From a virus, in the UHGV virus genome UHGV-0117953: a stretch of DNA of 13,797 nucleotides; one strand, given 5' to 3'. Position numbers and translations under genes: made by a program. Position 1 is the first letter of the stretch, and every line of letters begins with the position of its first letter. Under the pieces are notes generated by a model, which made no database searches, was not told the origin of the DNA, and was given only the letters and a program-made list of their open reading frames with translations. This document shows positions 515 through 12,367 of the stretch, piece after piece.

Positions 515-1267
515 ATGGCTGAATACGATAATCACCCATGTTTTCCTCAACCTAGTTCAGATGATATTTCCCTGTGGAAATATATGGATTTTACTAAATT
601 CATGGCATTAGTCACGTATCAAAAAATTTTTCTATGTCGATCTGATCTCTTTGATGATCCTTATGAAGGAACATTCCCAAGAAAAATTATAGAATATGTA
701 CATAATATGAATGAAAGCGACATTGATGAAACTATCTCTGAGTACATCAAGCAGGTGTATAATTTCAACAAGTATGTAAGAAAACATACTTATATAAGTT
801 GTTGGCATGCAAATGAGTTTGAGTCAGCAGCGATGTGGGATCTCTATAGTAAGAATGATGCTTCCGTTGCAATCGAAACCACTTATGCAGAAATAAAAAA
901 TCTATTACCGCCGGAAGCTATGATTGGCTTGGTTAAGTACATTGATTATGATAAGGATGTATTCCCGCTTGATAATACATTTTATCCTTTTACTCATAAA
1001 AGAAAATCATTCGAGCATGAGAGAGAAGTAAGGTTTTTAATTCAAAACTTACCTATCACTGCTGAGGGTACTAGCTTGGATTTTAATAATGCTGTAGCGC
1101 CAAATGTTATTCCGATTGATGTTGATGTTAGTTCATTTGTTAAAAAAGTCCATCTGTCTCCCCGCGCACCTGAATGGATGCTGAATTTGTTAAAAGACAT
1201 TGTGACTAAGTATTCAATAAATGTTGAGGTTAGGCGTTCTAATTTATACATTTCCCCAATTTACTAA
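515..1267 (+). CDS. hypothetical protein, DUF2971-like N-terminal signature
   Basis: 250-aa ORF with ATG start, roughly 35% GC. N-terminal LWKYMDFTKFMALVTYQKIFLCRSDLFDDPYEG resembles the DUF2971 pattern (aromatic-K/H-Y ... hydrophobic ... F/N-D-P-F/Y-E-G) as I recall it. Converges on the integrase 3' end. Confidence 0.6.
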   Translation: MAEYDNHPCFPQPSSDDISLWKYMDFTKFMALVTYQKIFLCRSDLFDDPYEGTFPRKIIEYVHNMNESDIDETISEYIKQVYNFNKYVRKHTYISCWHANEFESAAMWDLYSKNDASVAIETTYAEIKNLLPPEAMIGLVKYIDYDKDVFPLDNTFYPFTHKRKSFEHEREVRFLIQNLPITAEGTSLDFNNAVAPNVIPIDVDVSSFVKKVHLSPRAPEWMLNLLKDIVTKYSINVEVRRSNLYISPIY

Positions 1268-1437: not shown

Positions 1438-2487
1438 TTAATCGGGGAGCATATCATTAGCTTCGGTATGCTGTGTGGGCATTGTAGATAATGGATTGTA
1501 GTGTAGCGCTGTATTAAGGTGATCCGGTGCAAGATGAGCGTAACGCATTGTCATTTTTATATCGTGATGTCCGAGGATTTTTTGCAAAGCAAGGATATTT
1601 CCACCCGACATCATGAAGTGCGCCGCAAACGTATGGCGCAGAACGTGTGTCAGTTGACCGCGAGGGAGCACGATAGACGTTTTTTCCATCACGGATAAAA
1701 ATTGAAAATAGCAGTCTGTGAAGAAATTGAACCCATCAAGCGCCATGATCTCTTCGTAAAGCTCTTTACTGATAGGGATGCTTCTGTTTTTCTTCCCCTT
1801 CGTTCTTACAAAGGTAATTCGGTATTTGGTCACCTGTGATCGGGTAAGGTTTATTGCTTCTCGCCAGCGTGCGCCTGTGCTTAAGCATATCTTGACTACC
1901 AGTGCCAGAATTGGGTCCTGACGTTTGCAATCAGCCAGCAATTCAACAATCTGCTCATGGGTAAGCCATGCCATCTCTTTTTCTGCGATGGTGAATTTTC
2001 GCATGTTCTCCAGTGGGTTTGGATACGACCATTCGCCCAGGCGGGATAGTTCGCTAAAAACACTACTTAGATAGCTTTGCTCCAGGTTAATAGTGACCGG
2101 GCTTGCTCCTTTCTTCCATTTCTCGCTGAAGTAGATCTCTCCTGTCAGGCGTTTATCTCGATAGTGGGCAAACATTTTAGAGGTGAGATCGGTTGCAAGG
2201 GGATTGCCAAGAGCGTCAACCATCAACAGCAATTTGTCATAAACATGCTGCCCAGCAGTCAGAGATTTACCATGTAGTTTGAACCATAGCTCAACCACGT
2301 CTTTCAATGTCCGACGATCCACTGATTCGCCCAGCCAGGGCTTTGCTTCTATTTCCCCCATGGTGTATCGCTCGAAGGCCAGTGCTTCGCCTTTGGTGGC
2401 GAATTGTTTACGCACACGACGCCCACTTCGTCCGGCGGGGTAACATTCGCAAAGCCATTTCCCTGTGGTGAGTTTTCGTACTGCCAT
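1438..2487 (-). CDS. int: tyrosine integrase (phage integrase family)
   Basis: N-terminus MAVRKLTTGKWLCECYPAGRSGRRVRKQFATKGEALAFE is typical of P2/186-type integrase arm-binding domains. C-terminal HVLRHTFA and LGHHDIKMTMRYAHL give the R..H..RH and catalytic Tyr boxes. Start moved to ATG 2487, which has GGAGGG 8 nt upstream; the track start at 2643 has no RBS. Confidence 0.9.
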   Translation of the reverse strand: MAVRKLTTGKWLCECYPAGRSGRRVRKQFATKGEALAFERYTMGEIEAKPWLGESVDRRTLKDVVELWFKLHGKSLTAGQHVYDKLLLMVDALGNPLATDLTSKMFAHYRDKRLTGEIYFSEKWKKGASPVTINLEQSYLSSVFSELSRLGEWSYPNPLENMRKFTIAEKEMAWLTHEQIVELLADCKRQDPILALVVKICLSTGARWREAINLTRSQVTKYRITFVRTKGKKNRSIPISKELYEEIMALDGFNFFTDCYFQFLSVMEKTSIVLPRGQLTHVLRHTFAAHFMMSGGNILALQKILGHHDIKMTMRYAHLAPDHLNTALHYNPLSTMPTQHTEANDMLPD

Positions 2488-2675
2488 AAAAAATGCCCTC
2501 CAGTAGAGAGCATTTTCACTGTATGTATAACCAGTGTCAATGTATGAAATCCTACGACCATACATCTCACTGAAGCCATAATTAAGTTGGCTATTCTTTT
2601 TGCTATGTGAGCATGTAACTTTTGCGGTTAACCTGCGGCTCATTTTTATTTTAGGCGCAGATATAAAAGCAAAAG

Positions 2676-2867
2676 TTATCGTGAGTTTTTAGTACAGATT
2701 TTTTTGGATTTACTAATAGTTCCATCATTGCAAACGAATTTGCCATCTGAGGTACAGTGAGAAACACCTCCCTTTTTCCCTGAACAGGGATAATTTCTAG
2801 CATAGGTAGTTAGTGGGTTTAATAACAAAGAACATGACAAAACCACAAAAAATACCTTACCAAGCAT
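2676..2867 (-). CDS. small secreted Cys-rich protein (signal peptide plus 4-Cys mature peptide)
   Basis: 63 aa. [23 protein letters not shown] looks like a Sec signal peptide; the mature part has 4 Cys and many Lys. Strong RBS GGGAGG 5 nt upstream of ATG on the minus strand (plus 2874-2879 cctccc). Confidence 0.45.
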
Positions 2868-2882
2868 AGTTTCCTCCCGGTA

Positions 2883-3452
2883 CTATTTAACATACTTGAC
2901 TGTTAAACTTATAATTTTACCAATTATTTCAATGTCTTCTATCTTGCATTCGAAGGCTCTGTTTCCACCCTCGACGAAGATTCTTCCACCGGGTAAACGA
3001 GTAATGTCACGGATCGTTATTTCGCCATCAATACTTATTACCCATTTACCATCACGTATATCATCAAATTCCTTATCACAAATAAATTCAGAATTATTAT
3101 CTGTGATTACAAAAAGATTCTTGAATGCCGACGGTAGAAATTCTCTATCGAAAATATAAAAACCGTCTTCACACAAAGCCCCATCAGATAATACATATTT
3201 AGCAACTTCCATAGTATTTGTATTACCTGAAGTTTGCTTTGAACCATGCCCGGTTGTGAGCCAATTAAGCGAAGTGCCTGTTTCAAGGGCGCACTGGATT
3301 ACCCATTCTGCTGGGAATGAGTCACGCATGTAGCGTGTGGCGAGTGTACTTTTAGAGATTCCTAAATGATCGCACAACGCCTGTCGAGTCTTGAATCCAT
3401 AAGCTTCTACCATGCGCTCTATAGCGCCTCGTCCGCCTTTCTCCAAATTCAT
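2883..3452 (-). CDS. cI: CI-type immunity repressor (186/P2-like prophage repressor)
   Basis: N-terminal HTH-like segment TRQALCDHLGISKSTLATRYMRDSFPAEWVIQCALETGTSLNWLTTG. Sits at the immunity position, divergent from the early operon and co-directional with int. ATG at 3452 has GGAG 5 nt upstream; the track start at 3458 is GTG. Confidence 0.75.
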   Translation of the reverse strand: MNLEKGGRGAIERMVEAYGFKTRQALCDHLGISKSTLATRYMRDSFPAEWVIQCALETGTSLNWLTTGHGSKQTSGNTNTMEVAKYVLSDGALCEDGFYIFDREFLPSAFKNLFVITDNNSEFICDKEFDDIRDGKWVISIDGEITIRDITRLPGGRIFVEGGNRAFECKIEDIEIIGKIISLTVKYVK

Positions 3453-3476
3453 GGTCACTCCAAGTGAACTTTTGTC

Positions 3477-3505
3477 TTGATGATTTCACTGTGCGATCGT
3501 ATGTT
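3477..3505 (+). promoter_or_regulatory. candidate rightward early promoter (-35 TTGATG, 17-bp spacer, -10 TATGTT)
   Basis: Hexamers at 3477-3482 and 3500-3505 in the divergent cI/early intergenic region. Inverted hexamers gtgaac (about 3465) and gttcac (about 3512) flank it, and a perfect 10-bp palindrome tgattaatca lies at 3544-3553. Confidence 0.3.
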
Positions 3506-3577
3506 TATGGTGTTCACAAAATACAAACGATCCGTATTCGTCCTGATTAATCATCATTAAACGAGGAATGTTGCATC

Positions 3578-3799
3578 ATGAGACCTAACATTTCAATCAC
3601 TCTTACCACGCCTCATGTGACTATTGAACGCTATAGCGAGCTGACAGGGCTGTCCATCGATACTATCAATGACATGTTGGCTGATGGACGCCTTATCCGT
3701 CACCGTTTGCGCAAAGATAAAAAACGCGAAAAAGTGATGATCAACATAGCAGCCATGACCGTTGATGCGCTTTCAGAATGCAATCTAAACCTTAATTAG
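3578..3799 (+). CDS. Cox/Apl-like early regulator or excisionase (called by position)
   Basis: 73-aa first ORF of the rightward operon, immediately opposite the repressor. GAGGAA RBS 9 nt upstream. Basic HTH-like segment TIERYSELTGLSIDTINDMLADGRL. Confidence 0.5.
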   Translation: MRPNISITLTTPHVTIERYSELTGLSIDTINDMLADGRLIRHRLRKDKKREKVMINIAAMTVDALSECNLNLN

Positions 3800-3831
3800 T
3801 TCGATTCTGAAATACATCAGAGGCATTGACT

Positions 3832-4341
3832 ATGTTTGATTACCAAGTTTCCAAACATCCACATTTTGATGAAGCCTGTCGTGCATTCGCACTGCGCCAC
3901 AACCTGGTGCAACTGGCAGAACGTGCAGGCATGAATGTGCAGATTCTGCGGAACAAGCTGAACCCAGCTCAACCTCATTTATTAACCGCACCAGAAATCT
4001 GGCTGCTTACCGATCTGACTGAAGATTCAACGCTGGTAGATGGTTTTCTGGCACAGATTCATTGTCTGCCATGTGTACCGATTAATGAGGTGGCAAAAGA
4101 GAAACTGCCACATTACGTCATGAGTGCAACCGCAGAGATCGGGCGTGTTGCTGCAGGTGCGGTATCTGGCGATGTAAAAACCAGTGCAGGCCGTCGTGAT
4201 GCTATCAGCAGCATTAACTCTGTAACACGACTGATGGCGTTGGCTGCTGTTTCATTGCAGGCCCGTTTACAGGCTAACCCTGCGATGGCGAGTGCAGTTG
4301 ATACTGTGACTGGCCTCGGTGCTTCATTCGGTTTGCTGTGA
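3832..4341 (+). CDS. cII: phage regulatory protein CII (186 CII family)
   Basis: 169 aa from ATG 3832 (AGAGG 9 nt upstream; the track start at 3826 is TTG). [25 protein letters not shown]...[24 protein letters not shown] matches my memory of the CII/CP76 family, and the length equals 186 CII. Confidence 0.8.
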
Positions 4342-10051: not shown

Positions 10052-10267
10052 ATGTCAAGCATCGCCGCATTTAGCCTGGGTAACCCAGTTGAACGTCTGG
10101 CAAGGGTTCTTAAAGAGAACCAGGACAAACTCAATCTTAGTAAAGATGGTTTTGTGTCCGTAGACTTGTCTAACAAAAGAGCAATGGATGCCATCAAGGC
10201 ACAGATGGATAAGCTTGAAGGCATCAAAACGAGCACTGTAAAAGAGAAAACTAATAGAACCAGATAA
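10052..10267 (+). CDS. small soluble protein, first gene of a coupled two-gene cargo operon
   Basis: 71 aa, ATG with GGGGGAG RBS. Helical and charged. Its stop overlaps the start of the next gene (TAATG). Confidence 0.5.
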   Translation: MSSIAAFSLGNPVERLARVLKENQDKLNLSKDGFVSVDLSNKRAMDAIKAQMDKLEGIKTSTVKEKTNRTR

Positions 10268-11109
10268 TGGCAACATTACTTTTAGCAGTGATTTTGGTTA
10301 GTGGTTTTATTTATGTAAACCTATCACTTTCAACAAGATACCGATATAAGCGTTCCAACGGCTGGGACGCTTATTTTTTTGTGGCTGCCTGGGGTATCGT
10401 TTTTTTTCTCCTTGGCGGTTTTTTCACCTTTATTTTGAACGTCAGCGGAGGGTTTCGTTGGCTGGCTAATGCCTTGAATCTAACACCTGACAGTTTTAAT
10501 GGCATGTTGTCTTCATCGAAAGACAAACTTCAAAGAATAAATGAAATCAAACAGATAGCATGGGTTATGATTTCAATTGTCCTCGCTGCGATTTCAGGTT
10601 TTGGAAATAAGTTACGCACATCACGTGGAGATCGTCGCTGGGATGCCTTAGCTAAAGCTGTGGGTAATAACGCTTTCGAATCATTACTTATGGAAGCGTC
10701 CGCAAGACAGTTTCCGATCATAGCAACTCTGTCGTCTCGCAAAATCTATGTTGGCCTTGTTACTTGTCCGGCGTTAGAAAACGGGCTTTCAGAGCACCTT
10801 GAACTTCTCCCGATGTTAAGCGGATATCGGGATAAAGATGATCTAACGATTAGTATCACGACTAACTATCACCAACATTATCTTGATAGTGGTGTGATAA
10901 GTGGAATGTCTCGGCTTAATATCGAAGATTTCCGTGTGCTCATACCAAAAGATGAGGTTGAAACAATTTCGTTTTTTGATACTGAGACATATAACAAATT
11001 TAAAGAAAATGAAGCCAGGGATAGAAAGAACTGTCGAAAGATTGGTAGTAAAAGTGCATCTTCGCGCAGCAAGCGTGCAGCAGATGCTGAGTCAAATGAT
11101 CGTGCATGA
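10267..11109 (+). CDS. membrane protein (3 predicted TM helices plus about 170-aa C-terminal domain), function unknown
   Basis: 280 aa. Hydrophobic segments at about residues 4-21, 35-57 and 96-112, followed by a soluble charged domain. Lower GC than the flanking phage core. Translationally coupled to the 71-aa ORF. Confidence 0.65.
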   Translation: MATLLLAVILVSGFIYVNLSLSTRYRYKRSNGWDAYFFVAAWGIVFFLLGGFFTFILNVSGGFRWLANALNLTPDSFNGMLSSSKDKLQRINEIKQIAWVMISIVLAAISGFGNKLRTSRGDRRWDALAKAVGNNAFESLLMEASARQFPIIATLSSRKIYVGLVTCPALENGLSEHLELLPMLSGYRDKDDLTISITTNYHQHYLDSGVISGMSRLNIEDFRVLIPKDEVETISFFDTETYNKFKENEARDRKNCRKIGSKSASSRSKRAADAESNDRA

Positions 11110-11362: not shown

Positions 11363-12367
11363 ATGACAGACGAAGAATTAAAAGAACAGCATTCAATTTA
11401 CGGCTCAGTTGCGGAATTGTTCAGACGAGTTATGGTTGAGCAAATTGATGTTATTTTGTCGGAGAATAAATTGTCTTTAGGGGTTCCAATTGAAAGCCGT
11501 GTCAAAACATTAAGTTCTATTATTAATAAGGATAACCGAAAACCTCTAAAGATTGAGTCAATAGTTGACTTGGATGATTATGTTGGAATCCGATTAATAA
11601 TGCTATTTAAGCGAGATGTTGAAAAGGTTATATCTTGTCTGAAAGAACATTTCATTATTTTGAAGCAAGAGAATAAACTTGATGAACTGGATGAGGATAG
11701 ATTTGGGTACCAATCTCATCATTATGTAATACAACCTCCAGAAGAATGGCTAAGAGTTCCATCCTTTAGTGATTTTAAAAATATGAAAGTGGAGGTGCAA
11801 ATACGAACGCTTTCTCAGCATATTTGGGCTGCAGCATCTCATAAACTGCAATACAAAAAAGAGCAAAGTGTTCCACTTCCTCTTAGGCGAGCAATTAATA
11901 GAGTATCTGCTTTGCTTGAAGTCGTTGATTTCGAATTTGAAAGAGTGTTATCAGAGCGTGAGGGGTATGTTGAGACAAGCAGACTAGATAGAGGAACTAT
12001 GCTTGACGTAGAATTGCTGAAAATGATAGCTGCAAGTGAATTACCACCTGATAATAAATCTGATGATGAAAATTATGATGATTTGCTTTCTGAATTAATT
12101 AAAAATAAAATTATAACTGTAGGTGAGTGTATTGACGCTTTAAAGAGTGGGCTACCTTCGGCTATTGACGAAGATAAGGCAATGGTTAGAAGAATTATAA
12201 GTAATGAAGATGACTATGATGATGAGTCTGAGTTAAAGCGTGCTAGGTTAGGGGTGTTTTTCACTCATGTAGGGTTAATTCGGACTGCGATTGCTAATTC
12301 TATGGGGGCTTCTTATATTAGAAATCAGACCGAAGGAATGGATGTTTATGATGATTCAGAAGAATAA
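11363..12367 (+). CDS. RelA/SpoT-homolog nucleotidyltransferase (toxSAS-like) with an acidic C-terminal domain
   Basis: 334 aa, about 30-38% GC. Synthetase-fold motifs: R46-x-K48...S...K, D-x-x-G75-x-R77 (11585-11593), G-Y-Q-S-H-H (115-120), E-V-Q-I-R-T (11792-11809) and H-I-W-A-A-A-S-H-K-L-Q-Y-K. C-terminal roughly 150 aa are strongly acidic with no Cys cluster. Own AT-rich promoter region and AGGT RBS. Confidence 0.8.
   Translation: MTDEELKEQHSIYGSVAELFRRVMVEQIDVILSENKLSLGVPIESRVKTLSSIINKDNRKPLKIESIVDLDDYVGIRLIMLFKRDVEKVISCLKEHFIILKQENKLDELDEDRFGYQSHHYVIQPPEEWLRVPSFSDFKNMKVEVQIRTLSQHIWAAASHKLQYKKEQSVPLPLRRAINRVSALLEVVDFEFERVLSEREGYVETSRLDRGTMLDVELLKMIAASELPPDNKSDDENYDDLLSELIKNKIITVGECIDALKSGLPSAIDEDKAMVRRIISNEDDYDDESELKRARLGVFFTHVGLIRTAIANSMGASYIRNQTEGMDVYDDSEE

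Follow-up and report, generated by a model that had tools for sequence, protein, structure and literature searches.

A YdcA-family gene between repressor and integrase of a 186/P2-like prophage is predicted to encode an exported, cysteine-rich mini-protein

The window analysed here is a stretch of 13,797 nucleotides from the virus genome UHGV-0117953. It starts in the last few bases of the host gene rcdA and continues into a 186/P2-like prophage. Between the repressor and integrase genes of this prophage lies an open reading frame of 63 codons plus stop, with an ATG start, which can be read directly from the sequence at 2676..2867 on the minus strand. We are almost certain that this ORF is a real gene and a member of the YdcA family. 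Both the gene and the family are already catalogued, and no new kind of element is revealed. For its role we tentatively propose, from sequence comparisons, that it encodes an exported polycationic binding module that is co-expressed with the repressor and acts in lysogenic conversion.

Family membership and conservation

Profile and homologue matches identify the CDS at 2676..2867 (minus strand) as a prophage member of the YdcA family. The protein matches the NCBIfam family NF007463 (PRK10040.1-2) over residues 5–63 with 115.8 bits, against a curated cut-off of 93, and phrog_6000 with E=1.9e-34. Precomputed hits of the Pfam family PF27300.1 ('YdcA') are present on close homologues, and the link of the window protein to PF27300 goes via these homologues, not via a direct score of its own. 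In near-identical E. coli genomes, RefSeq labels the same ORF 'YdcA family protein', and the exact protein sequence is found in at least 1000 public contigs, within a 355-member cluster. Every invariant column of the family motif, PCSG.KGG...C....F.C.DG..S.SK..C, is present, and four cysteines are found in 261 of the 266 unique YdcA domains. The family comprises 1608 clusters at 90% identity and 458 representatives at 50% identity; most members are 55–130 amino acids long.

Among 82 near-identical prophage copies there are nine nucleotide alleles with 17 variable sites, 15 of which are synonymous. The two non-synonymous changes, T20A and R24K, both fall in the signal-peptide/cleavage region. 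Compared with diverged homologues from Yersinia, Buttiauxella, Citrobacter, Neisseria and phage HP2, the mature part has a dN of 0.10–0.28, and the signal part a dN of about 0.5 to 1.8. Since dS is saturated in these comparisons, the dN/dS values of about 0.05–0.12 are only upper bounds. An exported protein would be expected to show just this, a constrained mature domain behind a drifting signal peptide. The initial annotation had named conservation of the reading frame and its cysteines as a check, and this came out in favour of a gene: the frame is under purifying selection and the four cysteines are invariant among the homologues.

The initial annotation also allowed for a chance ORF. A related reading is that the ORF is a spacer frame that couples the translation of cI and int, with an irrelevant product. 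The ORF is indeed short, it lies between two operon genes, and some phage records, that of HP2 among them, leave it without annotation. However, the strong purifying selection acts on the mature peptide while the signal region drifts, and the 1608 clusters are found in many contexts without cI or int. Further, 188 nt (spacer 2487..2675) separate the stop of the ydcA-like gene from the start of int, so the ORF cannot couple translation to int. An irrelevant product is hardly credible. On the evidence of the sequence comparisons, the chance or spacer reading is refuted by the NF007463 score above its cut-off and by the selection pattern, with 15 synonymous against 2 non-synonymous sites.

Some other similarities were rejected. 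A similarity to DUF3761 was considered, but when 27 family members were scanned against Pfam at E<=10, DUF3761 was not matched; one UniRef label in the family does, however, read 'DUF3761'. The PBCV basic adaptor, considered likewise, matched only a separate C-terminal 'CTGPRGG.YC' extension of members of about 105 amino acids, outside the YdcA domain. In the family representative P0153, a YdcA domain followed by the C-terminal sequence 'CTGPRGG.YC..G.K.Y', the match is above the threshold of Pfam PBCV_basic_adap. Pfam matches to GULLO2-like_3rd and EGF were all sub-threshold, consistent with a cysteine-rich composition.

Comparison with E. coli YdcA

The YdcA protein of E. coli K-12 (57 aa; NCBIfam PRK10040/NF007462; PF27300) likewise has a signal peptide and one four-cysteine domain of 35 amino acids, and the two proteins have in common a motif beginning PCSG.KGG..HC. 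A chromosomal YdcA of the K-12 type (locus L060) is 57% identical to the window protein over residues 10–59 in a tblastn alignment. However, the gene in the window is not chromosomal but a prophage paralogue, placed in a cI-int operon. Its score against the K-12 equivalog model NF007462 is 68.5 bits, under the cut-off of 118. Neither a score reaching this cut-off nor the cybB-ydcA-hokB context, which mark an orthologue of K-12 YdcA, was found for the window gene.

On the E. coli chromosome, the gene order of the ydcA region is gapC-cybB-ydcA-hokB-trg (PMC5072838). The literature assigns no function to YdcA. Its gene is reported to be induced by acid under the control of YdcI, and E. coli W becomes more sensitive to 3-hydroxypropionate (3-HP) when ydcA is deleted (PMC7642389). 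The gene is also up-regulated in a time course of persister formation (bioRxiv 10.1101/310961). The 'ydcA' of ColV/F-type plasmids is a namesake only, as pS88 lists a putative adenine methylase. The 'ydcA' of the gonococcal island, within a region of unknown-function genes, is presumably another namesake.

Export and the mature peptide

The signal peptide was judged by heuristics, i.e. a charged N-terminus, a hydrophobic core on the Kyte-Doolittle scale and the residues at the cleavage site. The window protein has Lys4, a best 10-residue Kyte-Doolittle mean of 2.73 and T-Y-A at positions -3 to -1, and cleavage is predicted after Ala23. Codons 1–23 (2799..2867, minus strand) are therefore the predicted Sec/SPase I signal peptide. 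The pattern is shared by the whole family: the residue at -1 is small in 246 of 247 members (Ala in 227), a Lys or Arg is found within the first eight residues in 231 of 246, and the median hydrophobic-core score is 2.76. The YdcA domain begins at residues 20–29 in 229 of the 283 single-domain proteins, and in the window protein too the heuristics place a Sec signal peptide directly before the domain. The signal peptide proposed by the initial annotation is borne out by these features, and export to the periplasm is highly probable.

The signal peptide also contains a cysteine, and a lipoprotein was considered. Cys12 sits in the hydrophobic core and is missing from most homologues, including those of HP2 and K-12. 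Because this cysteine is not conserved, we conclude that the window protein is not a lipoprotein. The conserved cleavage site across the homologues is A-x-A, of the SPase I type.

Codons 24–63 (2679..2798, minus strand) encode the predicted 40-aa mature peptide, which includes the 35-aa YdcA domain with its four invariant cysteines. It holds 4 Cys, 7 Lys, 2 Arg and 2 Asp, with a net charge of about +7, in agreement with the cysteine- and lysine-rich mature region first described. On a 39-residue mature version without Arg24, the computed pI is 9.5 and the mass 4.1 kDa. An AlphaFold2 model built from 27 sequences, with a mean pLDDT of 77 and values of 81–89 over residues 31–60, consists of a signal-peptide helix and a small beta-hairpin.

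A peptide of about 4 kDa with four cysteines and a net charge of +7, carried by phages and small plasmids, could also be a secreted cationic antimicrobial or toxin-like peptide of the lysogen, such as a bacteriocin or a defensin analogue. However, with a Sec signal alone a protein of a Gram-negative cell gets no further than the periplasm, no neighbouring gene for immunity or export was seen, and the YdcA domain is also the N-terminal module of larger enzymes. Moreover, E. coli and related enterobacteria have chromosomal copies of the family, beside which no such gene was seen either, and this makes a toxin role unlikely. We regard the antimicrobial reading as very improbable.

Prophage context and expression

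Upstream of the ydcA-like ATG, the Shine-Dalgarno sequence GGGAGG can be read at 2873..2878 (minus strand), 5 nt 5' of the start codon. The stop codon TAG of the repressor gene lies at 2885..2883, which leaves a gap of 15 nt to the ydcA-like ATG. The 63-aa ORF with a strong ribosome-binding site and its position between cI and int had both been described correctly at the outset.

The repressor gene, cI of the 186/HP2 type (PF07022 and PF16452), extends over 2883..3458 on the minus strand, with the RefSeq start at ATG 3452. The divergent cI/cox intergenic region (3459..3577) is expected to contain the lysogenic promoter pL and the lytic promoter pR, by analogy with the annotated HP2 record. It is followed on the plus strand by a Cox/Apl-like excisionase-repressor at 3578..3799 (phrog_575, E=6e-31), the first gene of the lytic operon, and, 3' of Cox/Apl, by CII at 3826..4341. 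After CII come a Fil-like gene, assigned by correspondence with the near-identical prophage of strain UC4224, a Dam methylase and the replication protein A, and further downstream a DinI-like gene, two accessory genes and the portal gene. On the other side of the ydcA-like gene lies a tyrosine integrase of 349 aa (1438..2487, minus strand). Its mechanical ORF reaches 2643 (401 aa), but homology and the RefSeq start place the start at 2487. A promoter-like TTGACA-17-GAAAAT in the spacer before int (2512..2540, minus strand) is a consensus match only; the promoter scan found four such sites, fewer than the mean of 6.2 in the shuffled control.

A scan for terminator-like sites on the minus strand between cI, the ydcA-like ORF and int found none. 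Given the short gap of 15 nt, the GGGAGG and the lack of a terminator-like site, the ydcA-like gene is probably expressed in lysogens as part of the repressor mRNA. A single transcript that spans cI, ydcA-like and int in the lysogen is the simplest reading, and we infer that expression of the gene with cI in lysogens is likely. The earlier suggestion of a lysogen-expressed accessory gene fits this placement behind the repressor, which recurs in distant P2-like prophages.

The stretch of cI and the ydcA-like gene (about 2500..3200) is AT-rich, with a GC content of 0.32–0.37 compared with 0.47–0.53 in int. In the phage collection, megablast matched the flanks, int and cox-cII, but not this stretch, and tblastn found no ydcA-like homologue in any enterobacterial phage record of this collection. 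The suggested picture is that cI and the ydcA-like gene form an exchangeable immunity module. The ydcA-like gene is accessory, absent from the enterobacterial phages of this collection and placed for expression in the lysogen, as a moron would be. The module of cI and the ORF is found in 658 of 5426 complete E. coli genomes, and 629 of the 658 cover at least 80% of the query.

Two other regions of the prophage carry possible cargo. A DUF2971 gene (515..1267, plus strand; phrog_34615) lies between the rcdA end and int, and its protein matches the PADLOC candidate family PDC-S31 with E=3.6e-23. This gene, at the end of the prophage, may be anti-phage cargo; strain UC4224 has a different small gene in its place. 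Between the DinI-like gene and the portal gene sits a pair consisting of a 280-aa protein without family match (10267..11109, plus strand) and a 334-aa RelA_SpoT-domain protein (11363..12367, plus strand; PF04607 E=7.6e-20, PADLOC PDC-S33 E=1.8e-16). We take this interval to be the P2 accessory/defence hotspot, and the RelA_SpoT protein is presumably a defence gene of the toxic small alarmone synthetase type.

Recurrence beside repressors and in other habitats

The position behind a repressor is found again in Haemophilus phages. HP2 and S2 both have an unannotated ydcA homologue of 60 aa, whose ATG overlaps the stop of cI. In HP2 it lies upstream of orf1 and int, downstream of pL and on the same strand as this promoter, which is an annotation of the GenBank record.

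A species-level survey covered 80 genome loci of the YdcA family. In 6 of the 80, a cI of the 186/HP2 type lies directly upstream on the same strand, and in five of these six int lies downstream. In the prophages of Yersinia and Buttiauxella, the order cI-ydcA is kept though their cI is only 37–39% identical, and in the Yersinia prophages an int that is 48% identical follows the ydcA-like gene. At another eight loci, the repressor upstream on the same strand is of the unrelated S24/LexA type. An overlapping set of ten loci has P2 gpD nearby, and in some of them gpU or ogr. The hosts of this S24/gpD set are Comamonas, Iodobacter, Hydrogenophaga, Acinetobacter lwoffii, Aquabacterium, Oceanisphaera and Kingella. 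Taking the cI-type and S24/gpD-type counts together, P2-like prophages account for about one fifth of the species-level loci, with the gene on the side of the repressor.

The remaining habitats are diverse. Among chromosomal loci, that of E. coli is close to trg and those of Atlantibacter and Citrobacter are close to trmD-rplS; further carriers are phages of Moraxella and Acinetobacter and plasmids of Rhizobium and Acinetobacter. Since chromosomes and plasmids also carry the family, the YdcA protein is not specific to phages. In a contig of an Atlantibacter metagenome-assembled genome (L019), the YdcA gene has the chromosomal neighbourhood also found at other Atlantibacter and Citrobacter loci, except for a P2-like cI-int pair about 0.8 kb upstream; here a prophage may have integrated beside the chromosomal YdcA copy.

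The YdcA gene is also found on MOBQ plasmids of 3.9–4.1 kb with only five or six genes, and it is an unusual cargo for such small replicons. In the Acinetobacter plasmids pApiMCR53a (3916 bp; L005, 728..904) and pGFJ6 (4066 bp; L006, 640..816) it lies directly after 'TraD'. The UniRef name of the exact-sequence cluster, 'Conjugal transfer protein', is unsupported and may stem from these small plasmids with the gene after 'TraD'.

The YdcA domain as a module

Fusion partners were searched for by a Pfam scan of 30 of the longest family representatives. The YdcA domain is fused to SNase (P0117), to Endonuclease_NS (P0163, P0180 and P0195) and to PLDc_2 (P0174), and the set of 90% clusters adds a further Endonuclease_NS fusion, P0249. 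Precomputed architectures confirm these fusions of YdcA and nucleases. Nucleases, from three unrelated folds, are the only enzyme partners found in the fusions scanned. P0206 has a sub-threshold HNH match. In P0112 the partner is the C-terminal domain of the type VI secretion (T6SS) protein VasL (66 bits), while P0079-P0083 have two or three YdcA domains in tandem, with three in P0079.

In the nuclease fusions, as in the window protein, the same N-terminal domain follows straight after the signal peptide; unlike them, the window protein has no catalytic domain. The gene of the YdcA-SNase fusion P0117 lies in the moron region of a P2-like phage, beside gpD, gpU and the tape measure gene, which is the same neighbourhood as that of the free-standing gene in the S24-type prophage set. 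The mean net charge of the YdcA domain is +4 over 35 aa. Together, the fusions and the charge suggest that the YdcA domain is a small periplasmic binding or targeting module. As three separate nuclease folds have recruited the domain, a nucleic-acid ligand would be the simplest choice. That the ligand of the YdcA mini-protein is DNA can, however, only be put forward with reserve. The VasL fusion counts against it, as does the probable kinship with Dis2; both favour an envelope or protein ligand.

Relationship to Dis2 of the Dot/Icm system

In a search of the PDB with the YdcA family profile, the top match is 7muc_AN, i.e. Dis2 (Lpg0823), an outer-membrane-cap subunit of the Legionella Dot/Icm type IVB secretion system, with E=1.2e-4, part of this score coming from the signal peptide. 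With a domain-only profile Dis2 is still first, at E=0.021, close to LDL-receptor repeats at 0.026. The top Foldseek match is the same Dis2 chain (E=0.34, probability 0.80, 38% identity over 37 columns). An hhalign comparison of the domain profile with a Dis2 orthologue gives a probability of 80%, and this orthologue itself carries a precomputed PF27300 hit. Other PDB matches, to LDL-receptor class A and lysozyme (E 0.03–0.4), were treated as compositional.

Dis2 (PDB 7MUC/7MUD) is exported and rich in disulfides, as is predicted for the window protein, and each Dis2 lobe carries GG[IV]..C...G..VCN[ND]G..S. However, Dis2 has two tandem lobes with five disulfides (PMC8486379), has extra cysteines and is not basic, while the window protein has one lobe with four cysteines. 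Dis2 is a stoichiometric part of a type IV secretion system (T4SS; PMC8486379), and no T4SS genes are found among the window ORFs examined. The YdcA domain is probably a remote relative of the Dis2 lobes and not an orthologue. In the two reports on Dis2, it lies on the face of the cap toward the outer membrane and contacts the lipoproteins DotC, DotD and DotK, deleting it causes no more than subtle effects, and it is called specific to Legionellales and without homologues; YdcA is not mentioned (PMC8486379, PMC12716638).

Together with the VasL fusion, this relationship supports another reading, in which the peptide is an envelope adaptor or stress factor. It would dock near the outer membrane, on the anionic inner leaflet, peptidoglycan, lipoproteins or a trans-envelope machine, and either stabilise the lysogen envelope, giving for example tolerance to acid or organic acids as with chromosomal ydcA, or block the receptor or machine of competitors. 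In the nuclease fusions, the YdcA domain would then be a localisation anchor and not the substrate binder. That Dis2 tops both the sequence-profile and the fold searches of the PDB agrees with this reading, as do the hhalign match to a Dis2 orthologue with its own PF27300 hit, the place of Dis2 facing the outer membrane at DotC, DotD and DotK (PMC8486379, PMC12716638) and the YdcA-VasL fusion P0112. So do the reported acid induction of ydcA under YdcI and the 3-HP sensitivity of its deletion, which also count against a role with DNA (PMC7642389). On the other hand, without the signal peptide the link to Dis2 is moderate, with an E-value next to that of LDL-receptor repeats, the lobes of Dis2 lack the basic character and contain additional cysteines, and nucleases are the only enzyme partners found. 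We judge the envelope reading to be rather unlikely.

A proposed role in lysogenic conversion

From the layout, we suggest that the lysogen would transcribe a repressor operon of cI, ydcA-like and int, with the ydcA-like gene in second place, and that its own strong ribosome-binding site would drive its translation. Judging from the sequence features and the family pattern, the product would be exported by Sec and cleaved after Ala23. In the periplasm it would fold into a beta-hairpin domain of about 35 residues, with two disulfides presumed from the four invariant cysteines. The mature peptide of 4 kDa and a net charge of about +7 would be a free-standing copy of the module found on secreted nucleases. 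Given the nuclease fusions and the positive charge, a polyanionic ligand in the periplasm is proposed, with DNA as first choice and an envelope component near the outer membrane as second. More speculatively, the conversion phenotype might concern foreign DNA or the machines by which it crosses the envelope, i.e. those of superinfecting phages, conjugation or DNA uptake.

Small exported proteins for superinfection exclusion are known in phages, namely Sp of T4, Llp of T5 and Cor of phi80 and N15. By analogy, the window protein may belong with these small, envelope-targeted proteins of resident phages that act outside the cytoplasm. However, it is not a lipoprotein, unlike Llp and Cor, and no sequence relationship to Sp, Llp or Cor was detected. 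In a comparison of the ydcA-like protein with the defence models of PADLOC-DB 2.0, no family was matched at E<=0.01. Phage DNA presumably passes through the periplasm within a channel, in which case a soluble periplasmic DNA binder may never come into contact with it. Exclusion of incoming DNA as the phenotype is an unlikely proposal.

In its general form, this idea is that free-standing YdcA proteins are periplasmic DNA binders in the immunity or maintenance operons of mobile elements, where they would exclude transforming, conjugative or superinfecting DNA. Such carriers may include the repressor operons of P2-like prophages and, in Acinetobacter, the 4-kb MOBQ plasmids. We find this quite improbable, but if true it would define a previously unrecognised class of exclusion factor that is linked to repressors, and E. 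coli YdcA and the Dis2 lobes of Dot/Icm would thereby gain a function as well.

Conclusion

The value of the ydcA-like gene is as a lead into a widespread family of tiny proteins without assigned function, with its 1608 clusters. The family is tractable through its wiring into the repressor operons of P2-like prophages in Haemophilus, E. coli and Comamonas, its reuse by nucleases and its probable structural relative Dis2. Should the peptide bind DNA or a machine of the envelope in the periplasm, it might account for a lysogenic-conversion trait in about 12% of the complete E. coli genomes.
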